32,000 nucleotides of DNA, taken from assembly GCA_036749235.1 (NCBI GenBank), contig DAINYW010000002.1:34926-66925 (forward strand), given 5' to 3'. The notes under the pieces were generated by a model. It searched no databases and was not told where the DNA came from. It saw only the letters and a program-made list of their open reading frames with translations. The stretch comes from Nitrosopumilaceae archaeon. Its GTDB lineage: Archaea; Thermoproteota; Nitrososphaeria; Nitrososphaerales; Nitrosopumilaceae. The position numbers and the translations under genes were made by a program. Positions 5,589 to 32,000 of the stretch are shown one piece after another (within the stretch, counting starts at the first letter, position 1; each line of letters opens with the position of its first letter).

Positions 5589-6167
5589 ATGCAAACTTCA
5601 AGCACCAAAAAGACCCAAGAATACTATAAGCACGTTTCTCTATTTTGGACAGACTTGCTGTCTCTGATGGCAAGTAAGCCATACGCACTCTCATCTGCTG
5701 GCCCGATGAGAAAATTTGGAACAAATATGAAAAAGCTTAGCACCGAACTAATAGAAGCAAACGACGACCTACTTGAATTTAACACAAGACTCTCAGAATA
5801 TTATAAACAGCTTACCGATACGTGGACTGAGGCACAAAAACAATTCAACAAAAAAGTGCCAGAACTACCAAACGATGCAGAACATATAGAAGCATCAAAG
5901 CGTGTTTGGATAGACATATTTGAAAACTACTTTACAACTTTGTTTGACTCTACTAAATTTGCCGAAAATTTTGGCAAGCTAGTATCAAGTGAGCTTGAAC
6001 TTGCCAAACATTGGAATAGTATGATGTCAGTACTGCTAGATAATGCTAATCTTCCTACTAAAGATGACATAAACGAAGTCTACAAGGAGTTGCATTCCCT
6101 CAAAAAAAGATTAGCTAAGATGGAAAAAGACAGCAATCACAGGACGGTAAAGAGAAATGGTAAATGA
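5589..6167 (+). CDS. phaE: PHA synthase subunit PhaE (class III), by synteny
   Basis: 192-aa helical W/F/K-rich ORF immediately 5' of phaC, overlapping its start by 11 nt. Size and position match class III PhaE. The assignment rests on context rather than a motif. Confidence 0.65.
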   Translation: MQTSSTKKTQEYYKHVSLFWTDLLSLMASKPYALSSAGPMRKFGTNMKKLSTELIEANDDLLEFNTRLSEYYKQLTDTWTEAQKQFNKKVPELPNDAEHIEASKRVWIDIFENYFTTLFDSTKFAENFGKLVSSELELAKHWNSMMSVLLDNANLPTKDDINEVYKELHSLKKRLAKMEKDSNHRTVKRNGK

Positions 6168-7227: not shown

Positions 7228-7241
7228 GGAAATGGATTTAC

Positions 7242-7664
7242 CTACTGATTTCGTGTAGGTGTCCATGCTGAGATCCACGATTGTAGCATATTTTCATTTA
7301 GCTCCGAAAATGCCTTTGTGCTGTCATTGAATGACTTTAGGTTTTGTCGGGCCACGTCAATTGTTGCTAGTGCAATCTTGTTCTGAACTGAACGTGCTTT
7401 GATAATCTCTTCCGTTGCGTCATTTACCATCTTGATATATGCTGATGGCACGTTGGTGTTTAGTCCGCTCTTTGTTGCATATTCCTGTTGTAGCGAAACT
7501 GCGGAACCAAATGCATTCTTCCATGCCTCGGTATATTCTTGCTGAAGATTTGTTATTGACTGCAGGTACTGTGGAAGAGATTTCTCTACGTCATCAAAGA
7601 ACTTGTCGATGTTTTGTTTGTATACTGCAAAGATCTCTTTTGTTTCTGGTGTTGTCTTACTCAC
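7242..7664 (-). CDS. phasin-like PHA granule protein (candidate)
   Basis: 140-aa all-helical Q/E/K/W-rich ORF, 4-nt overlap (GTGA) with phaR. Its GTG start is preceded by a perfect SD, GGAGGTG, 5 nt upstream (plus-strand 7670-7676). No enzymatic motif. Confidence 0.5.
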   Translation of the reverse strand: MSKTTPETKEIFAVYKQNIDKFFDDVEKSLPQYLQSITNLQQEYTEAWKNAFGSAVSLQQEYATKSGLNTNVPSAYIKMVNDATEEIIKARSVQNKIALATIDVARQNLKSFNDSTKAFSELNENMLQSWISAWTPTRNQ

Positions 7665-8080
7665 TTTTTCACCTCCCTTTTCTGTTTCTTTTCAATTGGA
7701 ACGATTATTACTTGAACCAAGTCACCCTCTCCAATTTTCAGAGCGTCTCTTTCTGCTTCTGGAATTGATATTCTTCCGTTGCTGCCAACCGTTGTCTTAA
7801 ATGCGCCCCATGACAAAAACTGTGGAACTGACTGTGACATCTTGGACCAACTTTCTATTGCCTTTGCTTGAAAGTCTCCCACATTTTGCATAAATTCGGA
7901 CTGGACTTTTGCGTTTTTTTCAACTATCTCCCTTAGTGTATCAGCTGGGTTGAACGGTCCTTTTTGCTGATTCGTCAACTCACCAAAAGTCTTGAAAAAG
8001 TCCATCTGGGCCTTTCCGCCTTTTTGTATCCATTCTTTGAACATGGTAGATGGGTCATATTGGTTTTGGTTACCAGTCAT
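7661..8080 (-). CDS. phaR: AbrB/SpoVT-domain regulator, PhaR-like
   Basis: The C-terminal NGRISIPEAERDALKIGEGDLVQVIIVP is a swapped-hairpin AbrB/SpoVT DNA-binding motif. The N-terminal 90 aa is phasin-like helical sequence. The gene sits in the PHA locus. Confidence 0.65.
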   Translation of the reverse strand: MTGNQNQYDPSTMFKEWIQKGGKAQMDFFKTFGELTNQQKGPFNPADTLREIVEKNAKVQSEFMQNVGDFQAKAIESWSKMSQSVPQFLSWGAFKTTVGSNGRISIPEAERDALKIGEGDLVQVIIVPIEKKQKREVKK

Positions 8081-8103
8081 TGGTAATATATGGAAATCCG
8101 TTG

Positions 8104-8110
8104 AATATAA
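8104..8110 (-). promoter_or_regulatory. TATA-like box for phaR and the phasin-like gene
   Basis: Minus-strand 'ttatatt' centred 27 nt upstream of ATG 8080, implying a leaderless transcript. Confidence 0.4.
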
Positions 8111-8996: not shown

Positions 8997-10085
8997 TTAT
9001 TGAATCTCAGCTAACTTTTCAGCTGCATCCCTTTCGCCTTTTTCTATAAGTTGCTTTATTGTTGTAATAGAAAAATCAGCATCCTCAAAGAGAAAGTGCG
9101 AGTCCTCCTGACGTTGTATCCTTACTATCTGATCTATTATTGCGCCTCTTTCACCTGCCAGCTTTTGGTACTCTTGCTCTATTCTTGAAATCTTTGCCTT
9201 AGAATTGTCATCTAGAGGAACCTTGATGAGAATTTCATACATTTCTCTAACAAGCGAAAGATATCGGTTGATGACCCTTGACATGCGAAGGTTGTGTAAC
9301 GTCTTATCTGCATGCATGATATCCCTTGCCCTATGCCATACCTCGATCATGTTTCTTGGAAGCTCGTGTTGTTTGTCTGGAAACACGTCTACGATGTAAA
9401 CCCTCTTGTCATGCTTTGGAGAAGCATCAATGACTTCTCGAAGAGGTGTATTACTAAGTAACGTTCCATCCCATAGGTACTTGCCATTAATTTGTGTCCA
9501 AGATATTCCATAAAATGGATATCCTGCACATGCAAGAATGTGATCTGCCATTATGTTGTCGTACATGCTATCAAACACAGATGGTTTTGCGTTTTCTACG
9601 TCAGTTGATGTTATTATCAGCCGCGGTCTTTTTTGTTCCCTTATTTTTTTAAAATCTACATATTCATTTAACGTATTTTTCAGTGGCCTTAGATCGTAAA
9701 GATATGGCCACAAAAATGGAAAGAAGTAATCAGGAGAAGGCAGAAACCATTTTGGTAAAAATAATTTAGGATTGCCCCAAATGGCAGAGTTCATAGATGC
9801 AAAGTATGGTCTAACATTATCTGGCAACCCAGGCGGAGTAAGATATTCTGCTATATCTAACCAAAAATTCTCCAAGTCTTTCACAGGATCATTTTTTGCA
9901 CCAGCAATTATTGCTGCGTTTATTGCGCCGATCGAAGTTCCTGCGACGATATCAAATTTTATTCCATGCTTATTTAGAGCCTTGTACACGCCGCATTCGT
10001 ATGCTCCAAGTGATCCTCCACCTTGTAAAATGAGGACTGTCTCAAAACTCAACTTTTTGTTCTCTTTTTGAGATAGACTTTGCAT
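8997..10085 (-). CDS. patatin-like phospholipase/esterase
   Basis: Oxyanion G-G-G-S-L-G, nucleophile G-T-S-I-G (Ser51), and catalytic Asp in YLWDGTLLSNTP. Confidence 0.85.
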   Translation of the reverse strand: MQSLSQKENKKLSFETVLILQGGGSLGAYECGVYKALNKHGIKFDIVAGTSIGAINAAIIAGAKNDPVKDLENFWLDIAEYLTPPGLPDNVRPYFASMNSAIWGNPKLFLPKWFLPSPDYFFPFLWPYLYDLRPLKNTLNEYVDFKKIREQKRPRLIITSTDVENAKPSVFDSMYDNIMADHILACAGYPFYGISWTQINGKYLWDGTLLSNTPLREVIDASPKHDKRVYIVDVFPDKQHELPRNMIEVWHRARDIMHADKTLHNLRMSRVINRYLSLVREMYEILIKVPLDDNSKAKISRIEQEYQKLAGERGAIIDQIVRIQRQEDSHFLFEDADFSITTIKQLIEKGERDAAEKLAEIQ

Positions 10086-14744: not shown

Positions 14745-15248
14745 ATGCTCCATTTGTCATACGCGATTATGGTGGCTCTAGCTGTTTCAGTGGGAGTTGC
14801 ACCAATCTTTGCGCAGACACAAAATCAATTTTCTGTCATGGACCCTGCCGGCGGGCAGTCATATCCTGTAAACTATAGTATCACAGGAGGAGCGGTAAAC
14901 GATATGTCGATCAACACAAACGAAACCTCGCTTGTCGTGTCGATCCAGTCAACAGGTGCTGGTAATCTTACAATGACTCTTCCAAGGACACTAATAGACG
15001 CTAAGGCTGGCGCAGACGATGATCTGTTCTTTGTCCTAGTAGACGGTGCTGACACAGATTTTAACGAGTCAAAGACCAATACGGATAGAACTCTAACGGT
15101 ATCTTTTCCTGATGGAACTCAACAAATAGAGGTAATTGGAACACAAGTAGTCCCAGAGTTTGCTGGATTAGCATTTGCAATACTTGCAATTTCAATTCTA
15201 ATGATAATCGTTTTTTCCACCAAAACCACAATAAGATTCAGACAATAA
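14745..15248 (+). CDS. secreted protein with PEFG-CTERM-type sorting tail
   Basis: Signal peptide ...VGVAPIFAQ. Single beta-rich domain. C-terminal P-E-F-A-G (cca gag ttt at 15153-15161), then TM segment LAFAILAISILMIIVF, then basic tail TIRFRQ. Confidence 0.8.
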   Translation: MLHLSYAIMVALAVSVGVAPIFAQTQNQFSVMDPAGGQSYPVNYSITGGAVNDMSINTNETSLVVSIQSTGAGNLTMTLPRTLIDAKAGADDDLFFVLVDGADTDFNESKTNTDRTLTVSFPDGTQQIEVIGTQVVPEFAGLAFAILAISILMIIVFSTKTTIRFRQ

Positions 15249-17149: not shown

Positions 17150-18196
17150 TTGCAAGTGAAGACCAGTATGATGTTAATTGTTGGATTAACAGTAGCTACA
17201 ATTATTGGTGCAATCTTCCTAACTCTAACATTTGTGAATAACTCTAGCTTGGATTATAGCTCATTGCCAAAGAAAACATCCTTTTCAATAACAGAATACA
17301 AAATACCCGATCTAACCAGTTCGCCATTATTTCCAGTTTATGATAATATGCGTCACGTAATATGGGTAGGTGATACCAGAAATAACAGCAGTAGAATTTG
17401 GGAATTTGACATAATCAAACATGAATTTGTAGAACACAAGCTTGATAGTGTAAGATATGTAACTGTGATAACATTAGACTCGGATGGCAACCTATGGTAT
17501 ATAGATCCTGCGTCAAGATTCCTTGGACATTATAACCCAAATAATCAAACTAATAAGATAATAAAAATCCCTTCAAACGGGACTCTGACTAGCATAGTTT
17601 TAGATCCTGCAGGCAACGTCTGGATATCTGGAACTAGTTCTGATGTCTTTTTGAAATATTATGTCCATAACGCAACCTTTTTAGAAATTCCGACGCCAAC
17701 ACCTCATGCCTCGCCCCTAGGCATGGCGAAAGATAAATCCGGTACGATATGGGTTGCTGAAGCAATAGGCGCATTAGCAAGGGTAGATCCTACTCTTAAC
17801 AAGATTACGGAATATCATCCACATGACATCAAGTTGAAGATTCCAGTTGCAACTCAATTGGATCCAGGCGATGCAATTGTATATATTACAGAGCACGGTG
17901 AAGACGCTCTTTTTTCATTTGATACAAAATCTGAAAATTTTGTGAGACATGCACTGCATCATGATCCTCAAGCACTTCCGTATGGGATGGCATTTGATAA
18001 ACATGGAAATCTGTGGGTTGCAGAACATACGGTAAACAAAGTAGCAGTATTTGTTCCCTCTACAGGTTATAGTACCGAGATACAGATTCCATCTCCAAAT
18101 CCCTTGACACAGTGGCTTGCGGCTGACGAGGAAGGAAGAATTTGGCTTGCCGAACCTGGTGGGGCCGCAATCGGTGTTATAAATGAGACAAATTAA
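17150..18196 (+). CDS. membrane-anchored/secreted beta-propeller protein (streptogramin-lyase/NHL-like repeats)
   Basis: N-terminal TM/signal MMLIVGLTVATIIGAIFLTLTF. Seven recurrences of a blade signature (VIWVGD, NLWYID, NVWISG, TIWVAE, IVYITE, NLWVAE, RIWLAE). Collinear paralogue of aa 622-925 of the CopC-CopD fusion. The track start is TTG 17150; ATG 17168 is more likely. Confidence 0.8.
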   Translation: MQVKTSMMLIVGLTVATIIGAIFLTLTFVNNSSLDYSSLPKKTSFSITEYKIPDLTSSPLFPVYDNMRHVIWVGDTRNNSSRIWEFDIIKHEFVEHKLDSVRYVTVITLDSDGNLWYIDPASRFLGHYNPNNQTNKIIKIPSNGTLTSIVLDPAGNVWISGTSSDVFLKYYVHNATFLEIPTPTPHASPLGMAKDKSGTIWVAEAIGALARVDPTLNKITEYHPHDIKLKIPVATQLDPGDAIVYITEHGEDALFSFDTKSENFVRHALHHDPQALPYGMAFDKHGNLWVAEHTVNKVAVFVPSTGYSTEIQIPSPNPLTQWLAADEEGRIWLAEPGGAAIGVINETN

Positions 18197-22521: not shown

Positions 22522-23313
22522 ATGCTAATGACAACCAAAAACAAAATCGTGCTTGCAACACTGGCTGCAATTCTTATTGTTTCAACAACAGTGTTTGCTG
22601 GCATGCAGACTTCACAAAAAGAGGCCTACGGGCAACAATCACCAGTTCTGTATCCATCGCGAGAGAGAACAATCTCTGTCACTGGTGCTGCCACGACATC
22701 AGTTTTACCAGATCTCGTGACAGTGCAATTTGGGGTTGACACCGAAGGCAAGACGGCTCAGGAAGCCATAAGCTCAAACGCGCAAATAATGAATGCGGTA
22801 GTTTCTTCTGTTCAAAACCTAGGTATCACCAAAGATGAAATCAGTACGACTGGGTTTACCATATATCCAATCTACAATGATACTGTACCTGATCTGAAAA
22901 CCGGAGTTCACAAGTCAGTACTCGCAGGATATAGGGCCTCCAATACGTTGTATGTCAAGACCACAAAGCTATCCTTGGCAGGAAATATCATTGACACTGC
23001 TGTTAGCTCGGGGGCAAACAGAGTGGACAATGTGTCATTTTCGCTTTCTTCTGTTCAACAGCAAAGCATACAAGATGACCTATTAGGCAAAGCCGTACTC
23101 AACGCTAAATCTCGTGCAGAAAAAGCACTAGATCCGCTAGGCCAGAAGATAATTGGTGTAAAAATGGTAAATCTCTCGGAATTCAACATGCCTCCTCCAA
23201 TATACTACAATGCGGGAGCAGCTCCGATGGCAGAAAAATCCACGCCAATATTTACATCAAATCAAGAAGTAACAACTACTGCAAACGTCATTTTCCTAAT
23301 TGGAGACAAGTAG
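22522..23313 (+). CDS. SIMPL-domain (DUF541-type) secreted protein
   Basis: Signal/anchor, then I.V.G.A...V.PD...V.FGV.TEGKTA.EA...NA..MN.V...... and the C-terminal duplicated half that is typical of SIMPL proteins. The start may be ATG 22528. Confidence 0.8.
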   Translation: MLMTTKNKIVLATLAAILIVSTTVFAGMQTSQKEAYGQQSPVLYPSRERTISVTGAATTSVLPDLVTVQFGVDTEGKTAQEAISSNAQIMNAVVSSVQNLGITKDEISTTGFTIYPIYNDTVPDLKTGVHKSVLAGYRASNTLYVKTTKLSLAGNIIDTAVSSGANRVDNVSFSLSSVQQQSIQDDLLGKAVLNAKSRAEKALDPLGQKIIGVKMVNLSEFNMPPPIYYNAGAAPMAEKSTPIFTSNQEVTTTANVIFLIGDK

Positions 23314-23453
23314 CTCCACTCCTATCTTTTTTATATCTAGAACCTCGGCTGCTTATTCGTGCAACTAAAAACTATTTGTAATTGTAAAATCAGATCTGTT
23401 GATTCCTAAATACTAAACATCTTTTAAGGACTATTGCATATCTCAGACAGAAT

Positions 23454-24404
23454 ATGGAAGTAATGGGAAGAGGTTTAAGGCAGATAATGCAGGAAACTCC
23501 TTGTTATTTCCATATATTTACCAAATTTGCCGCGTACAAATTATTTAATAAACGTAGTCCACTCTACGGTTCTGCTGATATAATCAACGTATGTAATCTG
23601 CACTGTGAGCATTGTTACTGGTGGCTTAATAGAAAAGAAAATGAAGAGCTTACTGTAGAACAGTGGCAAAAGGTAATTGATGAGAAATTCAAGAAAAACC
23701 ACGTTTTCATAATCACCCTCGTTGGAGGTGAACCTACTCTTAGACCAGATGTTATAGAATTATTTGTAAAGCAGTTCCCAAAACGAGTCTCCATAGTTTC
23801 CAATGGAACTCTGCCACTTAAACGGATTGAGAATCTATACTTTTATTGGATTTCAATAGACGGTACAAAGGAAATTCATGACAAGATTCGTGGAGATAAT
23901 GCATGGGAACGTACAAGAAAGAACGTGCTTGACTATGTCAATAATAATGGAGAAAAAGCCTGGAAAGACATCTGGATTACAATGACTATAAACTCACTAA
24001 ACCACAAGACTGTCAAGCAAGTTGCAGACGAATGGTATGATTACTCTAATAAAATAGGATTCCAGTTTCACACTCCATTTATGAAAAATGACCCCCTGTG
24101 GTTACCCTTTGGTGAGGAAAGAACAAAGCTTGTTGATGATATTATCGCAATGAAAGCGAGGTACGATGATGATTACGTCATAAATCCTATCTATCAGCTG
24201 GAATTAATGAAGAAAAACTGGGGAGGAAAAGGAACTACACCAATTGATTGTCCAACATGGGCTATCGTATCAGTAGATCACTTGGGACGAGAGAAGAGAC
24301 CTTGTTGTATAGGAAGTGCAGAAAAAGAATCCATGAAGCCAATTTGTGAAGAATGTGGTTTAGGTTGCTATTCTGTTCTAGTTGGCTACGGCGTGAAAGG
24401 ATAG
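23454..24404 (+). CDS. radical SAM protein with C-terminal Cys-rich region
   Basis: C-x3-C-x2-C cluster in NVCNLHCEHCYWW. GGEPTL SAM-binding motif. The C-terminal segment has 6 Cys (CPTW...PCCIGS...ICEECGLGC), suggesting an auxiliary Fe-S cluster. Confidence 0.85.
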   Translation: MEVMGRGLRQIMQETPCYFHIFTKFAAYKLFNKRSPLYGSADIINVCNLHCEHCYWWLNRKENEELTVEQWQKVIDEKFKKNHVFIITLVGGEPTLRPDVIELFVKQFPKRVSIVSNGTLPLKRIENLYFYWISIDGTKEIHDKIRGDNAWERTRKNVLDYVNNNGEKAWKDIWITMTINSLNHKTVKQVADEWYDYSNKIGFQFHTPFMKNDPLWLPFGEERTKLVDDIIAMKARYDDDYVINPIYQLELMKKNWGGKGTTPIDCPTWAIVSVDHLGREKRPCCIGSAEKESMKPICEECGLGCYSVLVGYGVKG

Positions 24405-24425: not shown

Positions 24426-25811
24426 TTACATCCTACGATCATTCCAATTTACAAAATTTATGCGAGTAAGAAGGATAACTAATACAAGGACGCTAAATAA
24501 AACATACAATGATGTAACGGGAAATTCTGGAGTCGAAGAGGGATTCATAACAAATGCTGAGAATTCCGAGTCTGCAAAGCTATTTCCGTTTAGATTCTCA
24601 AATCCAATAGTAACGGGCCCTGTGAAATTTGATGGAAAAGGAACACTAATTGTGTTCAGCGAACCATCGCTACTGGTTTTTCCAGACTTGTGGAAGATTA
24701 CATTGCTCTTGCCCTCTATTACTGAGAAATCATAGTCTATCGAGTTCACTGTTTTATTAAATAAATAAGGATCTAAAACTTGGAACTTGAAATTTGTTAT
24801 TGCGCCAGGAAAAATTTCCTGCGGATCCCAGCTGAGACTCACTTTATACTGTGCGTTTCTAGTAAATTGTTGAATTGGAAAACTAGTCTCGTTGCTTGAC
24901 GCAAGTGAGAAATCCATTTCTGGTTTGGATTCATGTTGTTGTTTTGCCATATATGATAATTCTTGTTTGTAGAGTATCAGATGAACTATTCTGTCATCTG
25001 ACGAATAATCATCTATAATGATGGCATTTTGAGGTAGTTTTATTCCGTTAACATAGGCATCATATTTTGTAACGATAAAATCACCAAATGATTTTGGTAT
25101 CTTGATCTCTTGGTGAACTACACTAGCTTGCTTCAAGTTGGTATTAGACCAATCAAATGGCATAACAAAACCCATAGATTTCTTGTCAGGGTCATAGCGG
25201 AAATTATTTATCTGATCATAATATGCAATTACAGTAACATTTTGCTTTCCATACTTATTGTCATATACTTGGTAATAGTTTGTGACAGGAATGGATATGG
25301 CGGCGCTGTATGACTTGCTGACTTGATTCTCATACGAACCCATCGTTAGTACCTGAATCTTGAATCTATACAAACCTCCTGAATTGAAAACTGGACCTGA
25401 CACATCATAATTTCCGCTATGTTGTCCAATTATTCCAGAAAGGAATCCGCCTTTTTCATTAATTGAGACATTTCCAGATTGTTGAGGTATCATATTTATG
25501 AGAAAATTACCGTTGTCACTTTTGAAAACATGCCCAAACAATGCCTTGTCAGCTCTGAAAGCCGAGATAGCTAGGGTGACTTGAGGAAATGGTTGCTGGC
25601 TGTCTATATCGATTAGCATAAAATTGATTTGTGTAACTACATGAGTGTTGTCAATTAAGAATGGCGAAGAATTAATTGAGAAGGTCACATTCCTGTTCCC
25701 AATCATGGCTGGAGGTAACGTCTCACTCGCTAATCCATCACCATAGGCTGCTGATAAAAATAGAAAATTTGAAACTAGAAAAAGGAAAAGGACTACTTTT
25801 AGCTTGAACAA
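24426..25811 (-). CDS. secreted two-domain beta-rich protein with PEF-CTERM-type tail
   Basis: Signal peptide ...FLFLSAAYG. C-terminal P-E-F (plus-strand 24522-24530), then TM segment SLYVLFSVLVLVILL, then a basic tail. TTG start at 25811 is supported by TATA spacing. Confidence 0.75.
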   Translation of the reverse strand: MFKLKVVLFLFLVSNFLFLSAAYGDGLASETLPPAMIGNRNVTFSINSSPFLIDNTHVVTQINFMLIDIDSQQPFPQVTLAISAFRADKALFGHVFKSDNGNFLINMIPQQSGNVSINEKGGFLSGIIGQHSGNYDVSGPVFNSGGLYRFKIQVLTMGSYENQVSKSYSAAISIPVTNYYQVYDNKYGKQNVTVIAYYDQINNFRYDPDKKSMGFVMPFDWSNTNLKQASVVHQEIKIPKSFGDFIVTKYDAYVNGIKLPQNAIIIDDYSSDDRIVHLILYKQELSYMAKQQHESKPEMDFSLASSNETSFPIQQFTRNAQYKVSLSWDPQEIFPGAITNFKFQVLDPYLFNKTVNSIDYDFSVIEGKSNVIFHKSGKTSSDGSLNTISVPFPSNFTGPVTIGFENLNGNSFADSEFSAFVMNPSSTPEFPVTSLYVLFSVLVLVILLTRINFVNWNDRRM

Positions 25812-25830
25812 GAATTAATCCCGCTCATCT

Positions 25831-25842
25831 TTATTCTTATAC
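25831..25842 (-). promoter_or_regulatory. TATA-like box for the 24426..25811 gene
   Basis: Minus-strand 'gtataagaataa' centred about 26 nt upstream of TTG 25811. Confidence 0.35.
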
Positions 25843-25881
25843 TCTAAATAAATAGTGATGGGTTTTTCAAAATAGTGTTCA

Positions 25882-26379
25882 TTATAAGCTTGAGAAAGTA
25901 TCAGCGAGGTTATACGCTGTTCTTTCAAGTAGTATTGGGTTATATTTTTGAATAATTTCTCTAACCACGTCGACATTCCTTAGGTTGAATGTTTTTTTAA
26001 AATAGGTATTTTTGGTCTCGATCACTTTATCCTCAATTAATTGGGAAAGATACGTAGAAACTGTAGATGGTGATTTACGCACTTTTTCAACCATATTTGA
26101 GAAAGAAAGATTTTGATCATTGAGTAACGCAAGCAATATTCTTTGTGGAGTTTCCTGTCTTAGATTTCTTATTAAAATTGATTCTTCCTTTGTGACAAAA
26201 AGAGGATAGAATCTAGTTCTGCCTGACTTTCTTTCTATTTTTACGGTTCCATCTTCTTCCAGTTTTTTTACATGATAGCTTAGAACGCCGTTTTTCATTC
26301 CGGTTTCTCTCATTATTTCACGAAATTTTATTCCAGGGTTTTTTTCAATCAGTCTAACGATTTCAGAGCTTCTGTTCAT
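25882..26379 (-). CDS. transcriptional regulator with two tandem winged-helix domains
   Basis: wHTH 1: IVRLIEKNPGIKFREIMRETGMKNGVLSYHVKKLEEDGTV. wHTH 2: RILLALLNDQNLSFSNMVEKVRKSPSTVSTYLSQLIEDKVI. An SD, AGGAGGG, lies 7 nt upstream of the ATG inside the end of the upstream gene. Confidence 0.8.
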   Translation of the reverse strand: MNRSSEIVRLIEKNPGIKFREIMRETGMKNGVLSYHVKKLEEDGTVKIERKSGRTRFYPLFVTKEESILIRNLRQETPQRILLALLNDQNLSFSNMVEKVRKSPSTVSTYLSQLIEDKVIETKNTYFKKTFNLRNVDVVREIIQKYNPILLERTAYNLADTFSSL

Positions 26380-26381
26380 GT

Positions 26382-26774
26382 TTAGTCCCTCCTAAAGACG
26401 CTAATTGCAAACATCCCAAGTGTACAAAGGGAGAGAAAATGTCCTATTTCTCCAGCAGAGAATACCCCAAGATAATATGTATATTGCCAAGCGGCGTCTA
26501 CTAGCGAAAGAGTTTCCGATGCTACAAATATGGAAAAAGCAAGCATCGTAAACAATAACCTTCTTGTCCTTACTCTTGCGTAGGCTATGACAGATACAAT
26601 ACTGAGAAAGGCAGCCAAACCAATTCCGCTAAGGTGAAGCAGTATATGGAAAACCTGGAACTTGTGAAATATGTGAGGTAATATTACAGGTATAGCTAAG
26701 ATTCCTATTACGGCAAAGATGGTTAGCGTGAATAGCTTCGACCTATTTTCCAATAGAGGGTTGGTTTTAAGCAC
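26382..26774 (-). CDS. 4-TM membrane protein with a His-rich first loop/helix
   Basis: Four hydrophobic segments. There are 4 His within 14 residues (LPHIFHKFQVFHILLHLSG) plus GEIGHF in TM4. GTG start. There are 2 nt between its stop and the regulator's ATG. Confidence 0.7.
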   Translation of the reverse strand: MLKTNPLLENRSKLFTLTIFAVIGILAIPVILPHIFHKFQVFHILLHLSGIGLAAFLSIVSVIAYARVRTRRLLFTMLAFSIFVASETLSLVDAAWQYTYYLGVFSAGEIGHFLSLCTLGMFAISVFRRD

Positions 26775-26794
26775 AATAAAATATGGTCTTTTTG

Positions 26795-26803
26795 AAATTT
26801 AAA
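26795..26803 (-). promoter_or_regulatory. TATA-like box for the membrane protein/regulator pair
   Basis: Minus-strand 'tttaaattt' centred about 25 nt upstream of GTG 26774. Confidence 0.4.
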
Positions 26804-27002
26804 CGAACTGGTACAACCATCGAACAACGAATTGCTATCTAGAATAATATGGCATAACCTGCTATCTTTGTAGAATTATCAATTCACTTATGTTGCCAAA
26901 TGGAGAATTTCTATTTGCAGCGAATCGTATCGACTTCATTTGTCTCCGTTCTTGCTGTGCGCTCGATGTCATGCAGCAACGAACTGGACATTTTCAAGCT
27001 CT

Positions 27003-29975
27003 CTATTCAATATTCTTAATCTTAATTACTTGCTCTGAGCTTTTTCTAAGCTCTATTACACCTTTGCAGTAGAAAAAGGCCACAACAATTAGTAATCCTG
27101 TGATCGATGGGGCTACTACTTGAACATAACTAAAACCTAATCTAGGAATTCCTGCAACTATATTTGTTTGACTAGGAAAATTGTTTTGTGACGGACCTGC
27201 GGTTATTGTTATTGTTCCAAGCTTTTCTGCCCGCTCCTCGGCAATCACGATATTTCCTTGCGAATCAGGTGTTATCCATTGTACAGAGGAGTTTGATGAT
27301 GGAATATTTATCTCGATACTCTCTCCAGTCCTTGGATCAACTATTGCAATTTTATCAATAGTGTGCTGCGCAATCCAGAGATTGTGGTATTTGTCAAACG
27401 CCATTCCATAGGGTAGACCACTAGGATCAAGCGGTATTCTCTTGAATGTCTTAAGCAATGGATCAAAGACTGATACTGCATGACCCTCGTGTTCTGAGAC
27501 GTATATCTTTCCTGTCTGGGAATCTAAAATTATACCAGTGGGGTCCACAAGTGTATAGTTTTTCTCAGATGGTGAATACTCTGTTATCTTGTTGTTTGTT
27601 GGATCAAGACTAGCTATTTTTCCGATTCCTTCTGCAATCCATATTTTGCCTAAAGTGTTGCCTATCGCTATATCCTGAGGACTAGATTTGTTATCTAGCT
27701 TTATTGAATTAAATTCAGATGCCTTATGGTTGAATTTCAATATCTCGGCTGCGCCTGTGTCTATGTTTGTAGATGTCATCCAAATAGTATCGTTACTGTC
27801 AATGGCAATGCTTGTGAGAATTCCTTGACTTGGAATTGGATAATCTTGGTGTGAGTTATCATCTGGATTATAATGTCCAAGAATCTTTCTCTGATAATCG
27901 ATATACCAGAGAGTATCATGCGAATCTAAAGCCATGTATGTTATACTGTTTAATCCGTCAATCTTGTGTTCTGTGTATTTGTTTGATCCCAGATCAAACT
28001 CAAGTATCTTACCACTCTTGAATGTAATGTCACCAACCCATATCTTGTTTCTAGTATTATCATATACTGGATACTTTGGCGTACTGTTTGCAGGGGTTTT
28101 AAATTCAGAAATTTTTACAAGCAAGTCGTTTAGTTTTGGTCTGACAAGTAAGTCATACGATGCTACAAGATTGAGCGCATTTTCCTTGTCTTGTACTCCT
28201 TCGACTCTGACCGTCCAGTGTCCTGGAAGTCCAAAATCGGTATTTGCAACAAATGCCCCAGTAGATGTTTGGTTTGCATCTAGCGCGATTGATCCTATTT
28301 CTTGGTCGACCGGTGTAAGTCTCAACTTTACTGACTGCATATCAATTGGATTCTTGCTTGAATCCAAAAATGAAATTTTAAAATTATTACTCCCTGTAGA
28401 AAATGGGTTAATTGATAAGACTATTCTGCTTCCATTTTCGACAAACCTTGTCTCTGAAAAACCATTTCCTAGAGTGTTATCCGTAGAAGCAAGAGCAAAG
28501 ACACTTTGTCCATTTATTAGTTGTAATTGACTTTGAAACTCACTTGACGGTAATCCAGAATCGACAAGTACTGCTACGGAGGCAATCAAAGCTATTCCAA
28601 TCATTGCTTCGATTTGTGTGCTTTTACTAAATTGTGAGAAAATTCGCGTTAAATTAGCTGCGCCCGAGCTAATTGCATCATCCTGATTTGCGTTCAAGAT
28701 GACTGTGGCCTTGAATGCATGCTTGTGAATTACTGTCTGATTGTACGCACCTAGACACAACATGGCTGATGCAAGAGAAAGTTTTATGATAAGTACTTTG
28801 CCGTAGGTTGATGCAAGTGTTAATGCGATGTTGTTTTCAAGGACGAAAAGCAGAACTGGACCTGTTACTGCTATTGAGCCAAGTATAGTAATAACCAGTA
28901 TTGAGAACCGCGGAATAATAATTGAGATTGATGATATGTTGGCCGTGTCATTGACGGCTTGCTTCAGATTCGGTAGAATAATGAACGCAATATAGAAAAT
29001 CCCTCCGATCCAGAGAGAAGCAGCTATATTGTGGATGAAATCTAATGTTAAGGGAATCATCTGACCAGTAGCTGCACCGTGAGAGATCAAACTTGTTGTT
29101 GCCAGTATTGCAACACCTATGAAAAATAATGACATGACTAAACCTCTTGGAGCAAGTGATTTTGAGTTTCTTACTTTGTAATATGTTATTAAGGAGATTC
29201 CAAGTAGCACCGCGCATTCGATCATTCTTAGAATCCATATGTTTCCAAATTTGGTAGAAATGGCATCTAATATTCCAGCGTTGATTGAATGTGCCTGAAC
29301 TACAATCATTGCAAAACCTGAAGCCAAAAGAACGACAGAACCAATCACTGTCAATTTCATCATACCTATATCGATCTTGGTTCGAGTTTCTGCAATTGAA
29401 TTTCGTAACCAAGAAATTCTCGAGATGGGCTTCCATAACCATAGAGTTGCAAAAGTAGATCCAACTACCATGACTTGCCCGACAAGCGCAGGAAATCTTG
29501 CAAATGCTTCAGGTACAGAGATCTCCTGATAGATACTAGATGTCACATTGTTAGCTAGATTTGGTGGCACAGCTTGGCCCACGGCAAAGAAAAAGGGGTT
29601 TTCAGTTACATGACCGTCTATTTGATCTAGAACTTTGGCTGTCACAGTGTAAATTCCGTTTGACAACCCAGGCTGGAGAGAAATACTAACGGCCTTCTGA
29701 TCATCGGTTATGTAATGTAAATTCTGACCCTGAACTTCTTTTCCGTTAGTGTCCAAAACTCGTATCTGGCTATATTTGATATCAATGGGATCATTAAAGT
29801 AAACGTCGATTTTCGAAGGAGGTGTGTTCAAGGATTGTAGGGAAGCAGGAATGCTGTGGTCTATGTATGCATGTGCATAAGATTTTGGAAGGTTTGGAAT
29901 AACAATTAACGCGGAGGAAATTAAAAAGATAATTAGGACAACTTGAAATGTAGTTCTACGATCAAATCTTCTCAT
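27003..29975 (-). CDS. CopC-CopD fusion extended by a YtkA/FixH-like beta-sandwich, a beta-propeller and a C-terminal anchor
   Basis: Signal peptide ending SYA, then His35. CopC domain at aa 35-133 (HAYIDHSIPA...IDVYF...IRVLD.NGKEV...LDQIDGHVTENPFFFAV). About 8-10 TM CopD region at aa ~155-475. Beta-sandwich at aa ~512-612 (SINPFSTGSNNFKISFLDSSKNPIDMQSVKLRL...GLPGHWTVRVEG). Seven-blade-like propeller at aa ~622-925. TM anchor at aa ~948-972. Confidence 0.9.
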   Translation of the reverse strand: MRRFDRRTTFQVVLIIFLISSALIVIPNLPKSYAHAYIDHSIPASLQSLNTPPSKIDVYFNDPIDIKYSQIRVLDTNGKEVQGQNLHYITDDQKAVSISLQPGLSNGIYTVTAKVLDQIDGHVTENPFFFAVGQAVPPNLANNVTSSIYQEISVPEAFARFPALVGQVMVVGSTFATLWLWKPISRISWLRNSIAETRTKIDIGMMKLTVIGSVVLLASGFAMIVVQAHSINAGILDAISTKFGNIWILRMIECAVLLGISLITYYKVRNSKSLAPRGLVMSLFFIGVAILATTSLISHGAATGQMIPLTLDFIHNIAASLWIGGIFYIAFIILPNLKQAVNDTANISSISIIIPRFSILVITILGSIAVTGPVLLFVLENNIALTLASTYGKVLIIKLSLASAMLCLGAYNQTVIHKHAFKATVILNANQDDAISSGAANLTRIFSQFSKSTQIEAMIGIALIASVAVLVDSGLPSSEFQSQLQLINGQSVFALASTDNTLGNGFSETRFVENGSRIVLSINPFSTGSNNFKISFLDSSKNPIDMQSVKLRLTPVDQEIGSIALDANQTSTGAFVANTDFGLPGHWTVRVEGVQDKENALNLVASYDLLVRPKLNDLLVKISEFKTPANSTPKYPVYDNTRNKIWVGDITFKSGKILEFDLGSNKYTEHKIDGLNSITYMALDSHDTLWYIDYQRKILGHYNPDDNSHQDYPIPSQGILTSIAIDSNDTIWMTSTNIDTGAAEILKFNHKASEFNSIKLDNKSSPQDIAIGNTLGKIWIAEGIGKIASLDPTNNKITEYSPSEKNYTLVDPTGIILDSQTGKIYVSEHEGHAVSVFDPLLKTFKRIPLDPSGLPYGMAFDKYHNLWIAQHTIDKIAIVDPRTGESIEINIPSSNSSVQWITPDSQGNIVIAEERAEKLGTITITAGPSQNNFPSQTNIVAGIPRLGFSYVQVVAPSITGLLIVVAFFYCKGVIELRKSSEQVIKIKNIE

Positions 29976-29999
29976 CTGTCATTTTTTATTCTTGCCTAA

Positions 30000-30006
30000 C
30001 TATATT
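30000..30006 (-). promoter_or_regulatory. TATA-like box for the CopC-CopD fusion gene
   Basis: Minus-strand 'aatatag' centred 28 nt upstream of ATG 29975. Confidence 0.35.
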
Positions 30007-30124
30007 GCTCTTGCGAGAAAAGTGGTACAACAGTAGAATTAGACTTTCAATTTAGGAACCTTTCATCTTTTACCATCTAGATTTCTATAATTATTATATT
30101 TCTGGTGTTCGACGACTGTACTAC

Positions 30125-30136
30125 AAAATATTTAAA
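30125..30136 (+). promoter_or_regulatory. TATA-like box for the 30158 gene
   Basis: 'aaaatatttaaa' centred about 27 nt upstream of GTG 30158. This supports the GTG as a leaderless start. Confidence 0.4.
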
Positions 30137-30157
30137 CACAGAAATATCACCAAGTTT

Positions 30158-31060
30158 GTGAATAATAGAGTACTTGTCCTAGTTATTGGTGGAATTATTT
30201 CCACTGGTTTAATTTACACGCCGCACGCATCAGCTCATAATTTTGGAGGAGATGAGAGTGCATCATTTCTTGCCAAAGTGGCAGAAATAAAAACAGAAGT
30301 GAATTTCATTTCAAAACATGTTTCAGAGCCGGATGCAATTGATTACTACGCTGATGCCCTCAACGAGTATTGGAATGCTAATGATACGAGAGAAATGGGA
30401 GAGAGAAATACGCTATTACAAAAAGAGATTCCAGCCACGATTAATGCTACTATAGGCGATGCAAGATCTGGAAACCAAGCTGCCGTTAATGCTGATGTCT
30501 CGCAGCTAAACGGATATCTTGACGAAGCTGTTCCAGTTAGAATAGACAAAGACAAGCTTTCAAATTCCACCGTCCAAGCACTAGCAGTAACTTTTGTCTT
30601 AAAAGAAGCTTTAGAGAAGTATGGCGATGCAATCAACTCTACAGTGGATCTCAATGATATGTCGCAGATGAACATAAACGGTAGCGTGTCTAGCGGTTCT
30701 ACGGGTTCGACGCAACAAATGGCTGTCACCATTGTTGACCAACACAAATATTATAATTCGATAGGTCTTGCAACAGCAGCTCAGCAAATGTTCAATGACT
30801 TGGCTGCAAAGAACCCCGACAAGTCTACTTTTAACGCCAAGATATCGGCTGGACTTGCAAAGATGATACAGGACCTCAATAACAAAGCCGACGCAAATAC
30901 GATAATGACAGATGCGCACGTTGACCTCCACCGCGCCATAGTTAGTGGCTACAATATTCAAGAGGTACCAGAGTTTCCAATGCCGGCATTATTAGTGATA
31001 ATCTCAATAGTGGGAGTGATAGCGATATCAAGATTTAGGTCAGTCAAGTTAAGACAATAA
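30158..31060 (+). CDS. secreted all-helical protein with predicted N-terminal His and PEF-CTERM-type tail
   Basis: Signal peptide ending HASA, then His27 (30236-30238). About 240 aa of helical A/N/D/K-rich sequence. C-terminal P-E-F (30968-30976), then TM segment ALLVIISIVGVIAI, then SRFRSVKLRQ. Confidence 0.75.
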   Translation: MNNRVLVLVIGGIISTGLIYTPHASAHNFGGDESASFLAKVAEIKTEVNFISKHVSEPDAIDYYADALNEYWNANDTREMGERNTLLQKEIPATINATIGDARSGNQAAVNADVSQLNGYLDEAVPVRIDKDKLSNSTVQALAVTFVLKEALEKYGDAINSTVDLNDMSQMNINGSVSSGSTGSTQQMAVTIVDQHKYYNSIGLATAAQQMFNDLAAKNPDKSTFNAKISAGLAKMIQDLNNKADANTIMTDAHVDLHRAIVSGYNIQEVPEFPMPALLVIISIVGVIAISRFRSVKLRQ

Positions 31061-31086
31061 ATATACGATCATTTACTTGAATCTAA

Positions 31087-31791
31087 ATGAAAACAAGAAT
31101 TGTAGCTCTTGCATCCGTTTCTATTTTCATTCTGCTAATAATTTCCATTTCCCCATTTGCCATTAAATCAGCTTTGGCCCACATAACTAAAGTGTATGGT
31201 AATTACCTCCTGACCGTCGGGTGGGCAAATGAACCGGTGTATAATGGGTTAATTAATGCACCATTAGTTATAGTAAAAAAAGGTAGTGGAGACACTGCCA
31301 AGCCAGTAATTAACGGGCTAGCTAATATGCAAATCTCAATAAAATATGGCTCGGTAACAAAAAAATTGGATTTTGTTCCAGATAGTACGGTCGATGGACA
31401 ATATGTTTCTCCACTAGTTCCTACAAGAGTCGGCTCTTACAGTCTGATAATGAAGGGCACTATAGAAAATCAGAGTATTGACACCGAAATAGCGCTTGAC
31501 GATGTTGCAAGCATAGATATTTTGAATTTTCCTCCGAATACGTCTAGCGATACTTCGGCAAATTTGGGACAAGTTGGAACAATTCTTGACCAATTAACAA
31601 ATGACATTGAAGAAGCAAAAAAGAATTCTGATGCTGCATCTCAGGATCTCTTAAATGCTGCCAAATCGTTCCAAGATGTAAAGGATAGCACCGACAGGTT
31701 ATACCTAATAAGTATGACAGGAATTGGTGTTGGAATCGCTGGAGTAGTAATAGCGGTAATCGCGATTACGCGCAACAAACAACAAGTCTAA
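31087..31791 (+). CDS. secreted beta-sandwich protein with predicted N-terminal His, helical stalk and TM anchor
   Basis: Signal peptide ending SALA, then His32 (cac at 31180-31182). About 110-aa beta-rich domain (HITKVYGNYLLTVGWANEPVYNGLINAPLVIV...). Helical segment, then C-terminal TM segment GIGVGIAGVVIAVIAI followed by TRNKQQV. Confidence 0.7.
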   Translation: MKTRIVALASVSIFILLIISISPFAIKSALAHITKVYGNYLLTVGWANEPVYNGLINAPLVIVKKGSGDTAKPVINGLANMQISIKYGSVTKKLDFVPDSTVDGQYVSPLVPTRVGSYSLIMKGTIENQSIDTEIALDDVASIDILNFPPNTSSDTSANLGQVGTILDQLTNDIEEAKKNSDAASQDLLNAAKSFQDVKDSTDRLYLISMTGIGVGIAGVVIAVIAITRNKQQV

Positions 31792-31931
31792 TTTTATAGA
31801 CACTAGTACAAATGTGAAATCTACTATCATGCGGGATTAATTCTTCGCATCATTATCTCTGTATCAAATAACATCTGTGACTAGGTTTCATGACAATTAG
31901 TCTCTTTAACTTCGCATAAAGTACACAAGAT

Positions 31932-32000
31932 ATGGGACCAACTGTATTTACAAAAACATATGATCTCATGAAGTCAATAAGCAAGGTGATTGGGAATGCT
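31932..32000 (+). CDS. possible 5' end of a CDS running off the window
   Basis: ATG at 31932 opens a frame (MGPTVFTKTYDLMKSISKVIGNA...) that stays open to the window edge. Only 23 codons are visible. Confidence 0.2.
   Translation, partial: MGPTVFTKTYDLMKSISKVIGNA

Follow-up and report, generated by a model that had tools for sequence, protein, structure and literature searches.

The closest described counterpart of the locus analysed here is the CopC/D region of a soil relative, Nitrososphaera viennensis (NVIE_014250-014310), which is induced by copper limitation (Reyes et al. 2020, PMC7785015). That study covered the ArsR-type regulator, the neighbouring hypothetical and exported proteins and a promoter motif, and described CopC-CopD-YtkA-SGL architectures across ammonia-oxidising archaea (AOA). 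Under copper limitation, the log2 changes were +2.68 for CopC/D_a, +2.72 for the adjacent hypothetical protein, +2.47 for the ArsR regulator, and +2.6 to +2.8 for the exported proteins (PMC7785015). A 2025 paper handled NVIE_014250-014310 as one region (PMC12448741). In Bacillus subtilis, YcnJ is a high-affinity copper importer that requires histidines of both its CopC and CopD parts (PMC12154828, PMC13344008).

We analysed a block of genes in a 32-kb stretch of DNA (the window) from a Nitrosopumilaceae archaeon. The evidence supports a conserved unit under shared regulation, with a YcnJ-type CopCD importer at its core. The block is probably a copper-limitation regulon unit of AOA that captures and imports Cu(II). 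An earlier note on this DNA had called the module undescribed. The importer cluster, its regulator and its motif were in fact published by Reyes et al. (2020), whereas the accessory families are uncharacterised; what is new relative to that study is the definition of these families, their N-terminal histidines, and their co-conservation.

Gene layout and the CopCD importer

Counting ORFs of at least 60 aa, we found that six ORFs, rather than the seven genes of the earlier note, together tile positions 24426–31791, in the divergent arrangement that it described (Table 1). They form three transcription units, G5-G6, G4, and G3-G2(-G1), each with a regulatory box in front. G2 starts 2 nt past the G3 stop, and G6 starts 26 nt past the G5 stop.

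Table 1. Features of the block, related features elsewhere in the window, and boxes in the Nitrososphaera locus L054.
Feature	Position	Strand	Description
G1	24426–25811	−	461 aa, exported, tandem Ig-like beta-sandwich domains, PEF tail
G2	25882–26379	−	165 aa, cytoplasmic regulator, two winged-helix domains
G3	26382–26774	−	130 aa, membrane protein, four helices (by eye)
G4	27003–29975	−	990 aa, CopC-CopD-YtkA-propeller-anchor fusion
G4, CopC domain	29580–29873		47.1 bits, above Pfam cut-off
G4, CopD membrane domain	28566–29501		46.8 bits, above Pfam cut-off
G4, YtkA-like domain	28203–28412		20.6 bits, below cut-off of 25.9
G4, NHL/Vgb_lyase-type beta-propeller	about 27147–28118		61.2 bits, above Pfam cut-off
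G4, C-terminal anchor helix	about 27060–27128
G5	30158–31060	+	300 aa, exported, N-terminal His, PEF-type tail
G6	31087–31791	+	234 aa, exported, N-terminal His, C-terminal membrane anchor
Propeller paralogue	17150–18196	+	free, membrane-anchored, resembles G4 propeller
Third PEF-type tail	14745–15248		outside the block
Regulatory box TTCGATGGTTGTACCA	26809–26824	−	50 to 35 nt upstream of G3 start
Regulatory box TTCTACTGTTGTACCA	30023–30038	−	63 to 48 nt upstream of G4 start
Regulatory box TTCGACGACTGTACTA	30108–30123	+	50 to 35 nt upstream of G5 start
L054 box, G4 homologue	469–486
L054 box, G3 homologue	6297–6312
L054 box, G5 homologue	9951–9966

By its domain matches, G4 is predicted to be an importer of the YcnJ type (CopC-CopD-YtkA) to which an NHL-type propeller and a terminal membrane anchor have been added. 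This agrees with the CopC-CopD importer with extra domains proposed earlier: CopC, CopD and the propeller all score above Pfam cut-offs. The Cu(II)-ligand residues of CopC (H35, at the mature N-terminus, D120, and H122) do not vary, and neither do H299 and H315 of the CopD part. This CopC domain belongs to the Cu(II)-only class, which has no Met-rich site for Cu(I). The architecture of about 980 aa recurs in the best 120 of 456 homologues (E ≤ 1e-10), which come mostly from Nitrosotalea and Nitrosopumilaceae. Source annotations, like the family names, read 'copper resistance'. The nearest PDB relatives of the propeller are PknD-derived 'Pizza' proteins and Vgb lyase. A free propeller elsewhere in the window, previously singled out as a paralogue, is indeed 42% identical to that of G4 (308 aa, E 1e-73) and matches Vgb_lyase at 78.1 bits, but nothing ties it to the block; a box scan of the window found no box upstream of it.

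The ORFs scanned across the 32 kb included no P-type ATPase, CopA or CopZ, in line with the absence of efflux genes noted earlier, and G4 is the only ORF in the window of P-type ATPase size. A domain scan of the same ORFs found no multicopper-oxidase partner.

The accessory families

The two N-terminal-His surface proteins reported earlier are G5 and G6, whose signal peptides end in A-x-A↓H (↓, cleavage site). Such ends occur in three of 81 window ORFs, the third being the CopC domain of G4, and the first mature histidine is invariant in both families. In G5, the site is ASA↓HNFGGDESA, and an HxxxH motif is conserved close to the C-terminus; the invariant residues are H27, F29, M250, H254, and H258. 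G5 had no match in Pfam, NCBIfam or the PDB, either as a single sequence or as a profile. The family comprises 156 representatives among 1.84 billion proteins, and its named members are all Nitrososphaeria. Nearly all full-length members start with H-x-F-x-x-(D/N)-E-S-A; relatives carry a variable Met/Ser/Gly-rich insert, and many members have tails that are Met-rich or His/Asp/Glu-rich. Read by eye, the G5 sequence suggests a mainly helical protein.

In G6, the site reads ALA↓HITK; beyond it come a beta-sandwich (about 110 aa), a long helix, and a membrane anchor at the C-terminus. Five residues (H32, E49, P50, Y106, and Y118) are invariant across the 20 sequences compared. The AF2 model reached a pLDDT of about 72 in the sandwich region against a whole-protein mean of 57. 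Foldseek returned nothing significant: P19, HftA, PcoC and CopC matched weakly, and YcnI was absent among the top 50. The model is of modest confidence, and these matches are to generic Ig-like sandwiches. G6 is not a detectable YcnI/DUF1775 homologue, with no DUF1775 match in the 20 members and an hhalign probability of 0.2% against YcnI (7ME6 and 3ESM). G6 paralogues in relatives have Met-rich linkers and genuine PEFG-CTERM tails, and in the closest long relative (L001) PEFG-tailed plastocyanin-like genes come after G6.

The latter genes would fit a copper-trafficking relay that metallates extracytoplasmic cuproenzymes (AMO, plastocyanins, multicopper oxidases, aa3 oxidase) rather than importing copper into the cytoplasm, with G5, G6, G1 and the CopC and YtkA domains acting as surface chaperones. 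These AOA enzymes are membrane-bound or thought to be active outside the cytoplasmic membrane. Reyes et al. (PMC7785015) listed them and raised this option for CopC. In YcnJ, the YtkA domain resembles CtaK and aids CuA assembly. Transport is favoured, however, by the invariant membrane domain CopD, whose histidines are conserved; in B. subtilis, the CopD histidine is required. We consider the relay doubtful as the main role, although relay and import are not exclusive.

G1 had no match in Pfam, NCBIfam or PDB sequences. Its AF2 model is all-beta (mean pLDDT 72), and Foldseek recovered only multi-Ig/macroglobulin-like chains. Forty homologues, some of them from Nitrososphaeraceae, share a conserved (V/I)PEFP tail and a GDGLA.E.LPP motif near the N-terminus. 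No metal signature was seen in G1, and no box lies ahead of it. The PEF tails attributed to G1 and G5 have the PEF motif, hydrophobic helix and basic end, all kept in relatives, but do not reach the curated PEF/PEFG-CTERM models (G5, 13.1 bits against a cut-off of 23; G1, no match). Since the window has a third PEF-type tail beyond the block, the PEF tail is a general sorting signal.

G1, G5, and G6 could instead be structural or adhesive envelope proteins of a cell-surface or biofilm module, leaving a copper role for G4 alone. The general nature of the PEF signal and the multi-Ig-like make-up of G1 would fit, as would the strong induction of NVIE_014250-014310 in biofilms of soil AOA, but the authors of that study explain the induction by the matrix sequestering copper. 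An invariant N-terminal His, HxxxH and Glu are hard to explain in purely structural proteins, and G5-G6 and G4 have the box in common. We regard this account as very unlikely.

Of the two remaining proteins, G3 had been described as His-rich; its 130 aa include 5 His, a modest share. H41, H45, and H111 are invariant in 38 sequences, along with E86, D92, and E108, and H33 is kept in 90% or more. Judged by eye from its hydrophobic segments and the positive-inside rule, G3 would have four helices with its conserved His and acidic residues facing outside. Pfam matches were all sub-threshold, both for G3 (DUF7471, 19.5 bits) and for its Nitrososphaera homologue (MASE3 and Cation_ATPase_C). The winged-helix regulator of the earlier note is G2, with two such domains (aa 5–60 and 75–130) that match HTH_24 (68.7 bits), HTH_5 (52.9 bits), and HTH_HVO_0163_N (50.2 bits). 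Its score against the ArsR/SmtB metalloregulator model NF033788 (42.1 bits) is under the 55-bit cut-off. G2 has no Cys and a single, non-conserved His; it is not YcnK-like, and metal-sensing residues are absent.

Conservation and the shared regulatory box

The comparison across archaea showed the six families gathered around the importer at roughly 90% of informative loci. Co-occurrence with G4 was 26/28 for G6, 25/28 for G5, 32/36 for both G3 and G2, present as a pair, and 33/36 for G1, each time no more than 10 kb downstream of G4. The Nitrososphaera genome L054 has all six families in a rearranged gene order, with the G3-G2 pair adjacent (HMM E 4e-22 and 3e-43, respectively). Adjacency might merely be synteny inherited among close relatives, as the radical-SAM, SIMPL and HTH genes beside G1 keep their synteny in many Nitrosotalea-clade loci as well. 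In L001, L002, L009, L046 and Nitrososphaera, however, these flanks are gone and the six families remain clustered, the rearranged yet complete L054 cluster contradicts this explanation, and a common box precedes three units; we find it scarcely credible.

The box spans 16 bases (TTC-N6-TGTACYA; bipartite form TTCGA-N4-TTGTACCA). Three copies occur in the window against 0.13 expected, a number reached in none of 100 shuffles, and all lie 35–63 nt upstream of the G3, G4 or G5 start. A TATA-like element, TTTAAATTT, comes after the G3 box, and the G5 box abuts another, AAATATTTAAA. Across 50 archaeal loci, we detected 126 instances, mostly ahead of G3, G5, and G4; the box precedes G3 in 26 locus instances and G5 homologues in 25, and Nitrososphaeraceae L035 has it ahead of a G5 homologue. 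The G4 box forms a phylogenetic footprint in the intergenic alignment, and the TAGTACA and GA columns of the G5 box are invariant in 10 aligned intergenic regions. L054 was fetched after the box pattern had been fixed and thus served as independent validation: it has three matches (0.07 expected), ahead of its G4, G3, and G5 homologues.

The box ahead of the L054 G4 homologue has one mismatch to the published N. viennensis copper-limitation consensus TTCSGSMTTTGWACYANT. The window boxes differ from that consensus at 4–5 central positions, and searching the window with it at ≤3 mismatches gave one chance-level site only. Equating the window box with the published motif therefore rests on the shared core, position, target genes, and the Nitrososphaera intermediate.

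The box ties the block to the copper-limitation response already published, which favours acquisition over resistance; the earlier note had argued for uptake or surface buffering from the absence of efflux genes. Surface proteins that sequester excess copper would be consistent with the historical 'copper resistance' name of CopC/CopD and the source annotations, with the proposal that YcnI sequesters Cu(II) and limits entry, and with Met-rich segments in several family members, typical of periplasmic Cu(I) binders. Resistance or surface buffering is nevertheless very unlikely: the box is tied to induction under limitation, not excess, the CopC domain is Cu(II)-only, and the window holds no efflux ATPase or multicopper-oxidase partner.

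Under the preferred reading of Cu(II) capture and import, signal peptidase would expose His as residue one of G5 and G6. Together with Glu49 (G6) or HxxxH (G5), this His would bind Cu(II) at the cell surface in a YcnI-like manner. The tethered proteins would hold Cu(II), swapping it with G4 through its CopC domain, from which it would pass to CopD for transport. Met-rich inserts of relatives may hold Cu(I), and G1 may be a PEF-anchored scaffold or a further binding protein. Copper binding by G1, G3, G5, and G6 is putative. G3 may sense extracytoplasmic copper via its outer-face histidines and control G2, whose two different winged helices would make it a natural candidate reader of the two different half-sites. 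G2 is only a candidate box-binding factor because it has no metal-binding residues and the box persists where G3-G2 is missing (loci L014, L015, L035).

Comparison with known systems

The G1 and G5 tails share the tripartite organisation of PEF-CTERM/PEFG-CTERM (TIGR03024, TIGR04296), and G6 paralogues in relatives exceed the PEFG-CTERM cut-off; the PEFP tails of G1 and G5 fall under both curated cut-offs, and a cognate archaeosortase was not seen. Sequence, profile and structure searches detected no relationship between the accessory proteins and characterised copper proteins. Like CopC and YcnI, G5 and G6 would be extracytoplasmic with a His exposed by signal-peptide cleavage, and G6 has a beta-sandwich scaffold, but sequence or convincing fold relationships are lacking and the accessory metal site is a predicted one. 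To our knowledge, known N-terminal-His Cu(II) sites are built on beta-sandwich scaffolds; G5, by eye, looks mainly helical.

The parallel drawn earlier with ycnK-ycnJ-ycnI is apt at the level of logic. Both clusters contain a regulator gene and are linked to copper limitation. G4 has the YcnJ order CopC(N-terminal His)-CopD-YtkA and adds the propeller and terminal anchor. Several traits of G6 recall YcnI: its signal peptide ends directly ahead of a conserved His, a Glu about 20 residues beyond that His is conserved too, the beta-sandwich is small, the C-terminus is anchored in the membrane, and the gene neighbours a CopCD gene. Yet G6 is not a detectable DUF1775 member. The archaeal block differs in pairing a tandem wHTH regulator with a small membrane protein instead of a YcnK-type repressor, in the G5 and G1 families, which have no counterpart, and in anchoring by PEF-type tails.

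The N. viennensis region is likened here by description, sequence orthology being shown for Nitrososphaera L054 only. The window differs in coming from a Nitrosotalea-related branch and in having a single CopCD and a diverged box. In both, a CopC/D fusion lies beside a small hypothetical protein and an ArsR-type regulator, these two seemingly co-transcribed, and beside exported proteins, a promoter motif sits 35–70 nt upstream of start codons, and the order CopCD, hypothetical, regulator, exported protein corresponds to G4-G3-G2-G1.

Gene content and conservation of the block

The block at 24426-31791 had been credited with seven genes in an earlier note on this DNA. Our ORF listing gave six, G1 to G6, and a seventh was not found. 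The arrangement is divergent, with four ORFs on the minus strand and two on the plus strand. The stop of G3 and the start of G2 are separated by 2 nt, and the stop of G5 and the start of G6 by 26 nt; the gaps are 228 nt between G4 and G3 and 70 nt between G2 and G1.

ORFs of the block, position of the regulatory box relative to the start, and informative archaeal loci in which the family was found near G4
ORF	Product	Position	Strand	Box relative to start	Loci with family near G4
G1	Ig-like surface protein	24426-25811	-		33/36
G2	winged-helix regulator	25882-26379	-		32/36
G3	small membrane protein	26382-26774	-	-50 to -35	32/36
G4	CopC-CopD-(YtkA-like)-propeller fusion, putative importer	27003-29975	-	-63 to -48	
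G5	exported N-terminal-His protein	30158-31060	+	-50 to -35	25/28
G6	exported N-terminal-His protein	31087-31791	+		26/28

Co-conservation was scanned in 50 archaeal loci; loci with at least 4.5 kb of flank were considered informative, and a family was counted if it lay no more than 10 kb from G4. All five families recurred near the importer in most informative loci (see table), G6 being positioned upstream of G4. In the Nitrososphaeraceae MAG loci, G5 and G1 were kept beside the importer. On a Nitrososphaera sp. contig (L054), the six families were found together in one cluster (HMM E-values 4e-22 to 2e-63) in an order differing from that of the window, with the G3-like and G2-like genes adjacent, as in the window. 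That the clustering is kept through rearrangement between the two major families of ammonia-oxidising archaea (AOA) speaks for function rather than inherited order.

Several observations concern the surroundings of the block. A SIMPL/DUF541 gene and a PTO1314-like radical-SAM gene (22522-24404, +) adjoin G1; their synteny with the block was seen in many Nitrosotalea-clade loci and was absent in L001, L002, L009, L046, and Nitrososphaera. Two more exported proteins of the L054 cluster (L054:5442-6233 and L054:8097-8663) have a mature N-terminal His (AFA/HAHTS... and AEA/HFFGA..., the slash marking the end of the signal peptide), a feature of about half of the genes there. In L001, the closest of the long relatives, the genes after G6 encode two plastocyanin-like cupredoxins with tails of the PEFG-CTERM type (6588-8104) and a G1 paralogue (L001:4104-5561), and in the window an ORF beginning MKSISKVIGNA (31968-32000, +) continues past the end; for these reasons, the module may extend beyond the window. 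Elsewhere in the window, a PhaE-like and PhaC-like pair (class III polyhydroxyalkanoate synthase; 5589-7227, +) has patatin-like phospholipase and alpha/beta-hydrolase genes nearby.

Putative importer and exported surface proteins

G4 is a protein of 990 aa that matched CopC (PF04234, 47.1 bits against a cut-off of 23.3), CopD (PF05425, 46.8 bits against 32.1), and a Vgb_lyase/NHL/SGL beta-propeller (61.2 bits), and that ends in a terminal hydrophobic helix. Its YtkA-like domain (PF13115) scored 20.6 bits, under the cut-off of 25.9; this domain is precomputed in several G4 homologues. In an alignment of 13 homologues, H35 (the first mature residue, after SYA), D120, and H122 of the CopC domain were invariant, as were H299 and H315 of the CopD region. 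The CopC residues correspond to the Cu(II)-only ligand set, including the D-x-H pair. The propeller was nearest to the PknD sensor-derived 'Pizza' proteins and Vgb lyase. The architecture of about 980 aa is common among Nitrosotalea and Nitrosopumilaceae, and the order CopC-CopD-YtkA-SGL was already drawn in Fig. S5 of Reyes et al. 2020 (PMC7785015).

A propeller paralogue at 17150-18196 was considered as a module member and rejected, as it has neither an upstream box nor conserved linkage. Some genomes carry a second CopCD-propeller locus, and L021 and L025 share one contig. These second-type loci (44-48% identity) have two or three G6-like paralogues in tandem beside them (L025:8368-9892; L036; L024:8709-9350; L026:8734-9345).

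A signal peptide ending in A-x-A and followed directly by His was present in just three of the 81 window ORFs: G5, G6, and G4, where it precedes the CopC domain. This N-terminal-His hallmark of two orphan families, G5 and G6, is new here. Searches of Pfam, NCBIfam, and the PDB with G1, G5, and G6, singly and as family profiles, yielded nothing meaningful.

In the G6 family, His32, Glu49, Pro50, Tyr106, and Tyr118 were invariant across 20 sequences. In the AF2 model of G6, a beta-sandwich of some 110 residues (pLDDT ~72) leads into a long helix, and the membrane anchor that follows, a C-terminal helix, spans aa 211-230. We considered G6 as a homologue of YcnI, that is, as a DUF1775 protein, and rejected this by sequence and profile: DUF1775 (PF07987) matched none of the 20 family members at E <= 0.05, and the hhalign probability of the G6 profile against the verified YcnI sequences 7ME6 and 3ESM was 0.2%. 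Descent of G6 or G1 from the CopC or YtkA domains of G4 was likewise rejected (hhalign probabilities <= 4%). A search of the PDB with the G6 profile found nothing, and Foldseek returned generic Ig-like matches, P19, HftA, PcoC, and CopC among them, with non-significant E-values. Met-rich linkers (MNGMNMS repeats) occur in the G6 paralogues of relatives, whose tails reach the PEFG-CTERM model; those in L024 and L026 score 25.8 and 25.6 bits against the TIGR04296 cut-off of 25.

The G5 family is small (156 representatives among 1.84 billion proteins), and its named members are all 'hypothetical proteins' of Nitrososphaeria. Nearly all full-length members start with H-x-F-x-x-(D/N)-E-S-A straight after the signal peptide, and many have Met/Ser/Gly-rich inserts or His/Asp/Glu-rich tails. 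His254-x3-His258 and Met250 of G5 were invariant among aligned relatives.

The model of G1 (pLDDT 72) consists of tandem Ig-like sandwiches, for which the fold search returned generic multi-Ig/macroglobulin matches only, with low TM scores. Sub-threshold YtkA matches were restricted to two Nitrososphaera homologues of G1. The C-termini of G1 (...STPEFPVTSLYVLFSVLVLVILLTR) and G5 (...VPEFPMPALLVIISIVGVIAISRFR) each combine a PEF motif, a hydrophobic helix, and a basic cluster, and these PEFP-helix-basic tails are conserved across homologues. The earlier proposal of PEF-type sorting tails on two proteins thus stands as far as the conserved tripartite structure is concerned, but both tails fall below the cut-offs of the curated PEF/PEFG-CTERM models TIGR03024 and TIGR04296 (G5, 13.1 bits against 23; G1, no match). 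No archaeosortase match was found among the window ORFs scanned. Outside the block, a 167-aa ORF (14745-15248, +) also has a PEF(G)-type tail (VVPEFAGLAFAIL...), with 21.9 bits for TIGR04296, just below the cut-off, and a weak ArlF-like match; tails of this type therefore serve as a general signal for sorting in this organism.

Regulatory box and the G3-G2 pair

Two inverted copies of a 16-base box lie between the divergent genes G5 and G4, and a third is found ahead of G3. Within the 32 kb, the pattern TTCNNNNNNTGTACYA occurred exactly three times versus 0.13 expected, and none of 100 shuffles reached three. The three window copies share the core TTC-N6-TGTACYA at -35 to -63, each with a TATA-like element beside it. 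Across the archaeal loci, 126 instances were detected, mainly before G3 (26), G5 (25), G4 (at least 13), and G6-like paralogues (7), and also in front of Met-rich exported proteins. The box, with the consensus TTCGAYRRTTGTACCA, forms a conserved footprint within otherwise variable intergenic DNA.

In Nitrososphaera viennensis, the motif TTCSGSMTTTGWACYANT was reported at -35 to -70 upstream of genes induced by copper limitation, including a CopC/D gene and a hypothetical gene that shares its transcript with an ArsR regulator (PMC7785015). Searching the window with this published consensus at up to three mismatches retrieved none of the three boxes; the site that matched, TTTCACATTTGTACTAGT at 31802-31819 (-), just after the G6 stop, has two mismatches and is at chance level. 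It adjoins TATAAAAT. The relaxed core was used in place of the published consensus and was tested independently on L054, a locus obtained after the pattern had been fixed. In L054, the box occurred three times versus 0.07 expected, before the G4, G3, and G5 homologues and at the distances seen in the window, and the copy before the importer differed from the published consensus by one mismatch. The L054 cluster bridges the two forms, and we take the window box to be a probable diverged orthologue of the copper-limitation motif.

L001 and L002 are the two relatives whose G6 has the highest identity to that of the window; in both, the importer-side box is degenerate and the G5-side box intact (L001:9900-9990, L002:7000-7090). 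Boxes also precede small exported proteins whose N-terminal regions are rich in Met (e.g., MDMSGMGSMQDMQNTM) at L026:15063-15875, L027:2746-3171, and L028:15065-15526, which are possible further regulon members.

G2 contains two winged-helix domains (HTH_24, HTH_5, HVO_0163_N), with HTH_5 scoring 52.9 bits against a cut-off of 22. It shares the ArsR-type winged helix with the ArsR/SmtB repressors but lacks both a family-level score (NF033788, 42.1 bits, below the cut-off of 55) and a metal-sensing Cys/His site, having no Cys and one non-conserved His. G3, read by eye, is a four-helix membrane protein in which H41, H45, H111, E86, D92, and E108 are invariant and H33 nearly so. By the positive-inside rule, these conserved His and acidic residues would face outward. 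Its Pfam matches were sub-threshold only (DUF7471; for the Nitrososphaera homologue, MASE3 and Cation_ATPase_C). The HMMs of G2 and G3 had no match in the Nitrososphaeraceae MAG loci L035, L048, and L049, nor in L014, L015, and L025. A clade-specific pair, as these absences would have it, was overturned by the presence of both genes in L054.

Copper response, proposed mechanism and known systems

The N. viennensis region is the only one for which induction on copper limitation has been published (PMC7785015). The log2 changes were +2.68 for CopC/D (NVIE_014300), +2.72 for a hypothetical gene (NVIE_014290), +2.47 for an ArsR family gene (NVIE_014280), and +2.64 and +2.80 for the exported NVIE_014250 and NVIE_1457. 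On the reverse strand, the region reads CopCD, hypothetical, regulator, exported, the same order as G4-G3-G2-G1. It was also induced in biofilms in a 2025 study that called NVIE_014290 a putative cation channel (PMC12448741). Via L054, the block is probably orthologous to these genes. Since the core and its copper response were already published for N. viennensis, the cluster cannot be termed undescribed, as the earlier note had it; the six-family definition of the module across AOA is new here, and so are the arrangement of the box at three promoters and the naming of G3-G2 as a candidate sensor-regulator pair.

The block combines its domain content with conserved ligand-type residues, clustering, and a shared box at fixed spacing, and its reading as a copper-acquisition block is well supported. 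We propose that G5 and G6 would hold Cu(II) at the cell surface through their N-terminal His, and that this Cu(II) may be exchanged with the CopC domain of G4, by analogy with YcnI and YcnJ. CopD of G4 would then transport the metal, and G1 may act as an anchored scaffold or binder. G3 would sense copper outside the cell and control G2. The two winged helices of G2 differ from each other, as do the two half-sites of the box, which they could read. Control of the box by G3-G2 is the weakest step because the box persists in loci without G3-G2 nearby. It is conceivable, although we would not bet on it, that G5 and G6 are archaeal-specific N-terminal-His (histidine-brace-like) Cu(II) families, one of them possibly on a helical scaffold, and that G3-G2 is an unrecognised archaeal signalling pair, with G3 sensing extracytoplasmic copper via outer-face histidines and G2, as a single-chain tandem winged-helix protein, reading the bipartite box and driving the AOA copper regulon.

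The energy metabolism of AOA depends on copper enzymes, and copper supply is limiting for nitrification in soils, in the oceans, and in water treatment. Genes known as 'hypothetical' and induced by copper limitation now belong to a defined module whose conservation spans families: an importer resembling YcnJ to which a propeller is added, two small exported families with an invariant N-terminal His, a PEF-anchored surface protein, a membrane-protein/regulator pair, and a shared promoter box at fixed spacing, the last of which can be used to map the copper regulon of uncultivated lineages.

YcnJ of Bacillus subtilis has the CopC-CopD order of G4, followed by a YtkA domain where G4 has its sub-threshold YtkA-like stretch, and is an experimentally supported high-affinity copper importer that needs CopC His24 and CopD His295; copper import under copper limitation has been demonstrated for this protein only (PMC12154828, PMC13344008). 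In YcnI of B. subtilis, an N-terminal His27 and Glu50 are combined with a cupredoxin fold and a C-terminal helix, and its gene has a CopCD gene as neighbour. G6 appears similar in its N-terminal His (H32) and conserved Glu (E49), its C-terminal helix, and its CopCD neighbour, so that its overall architecture mirrors YcnI, yet by sequence it is not a member of that family. The parallel drawn earlier with ycnK-ycnJ-ycnI accordingly holds for the logic of the system but does not extend to homology of the accessory parts.
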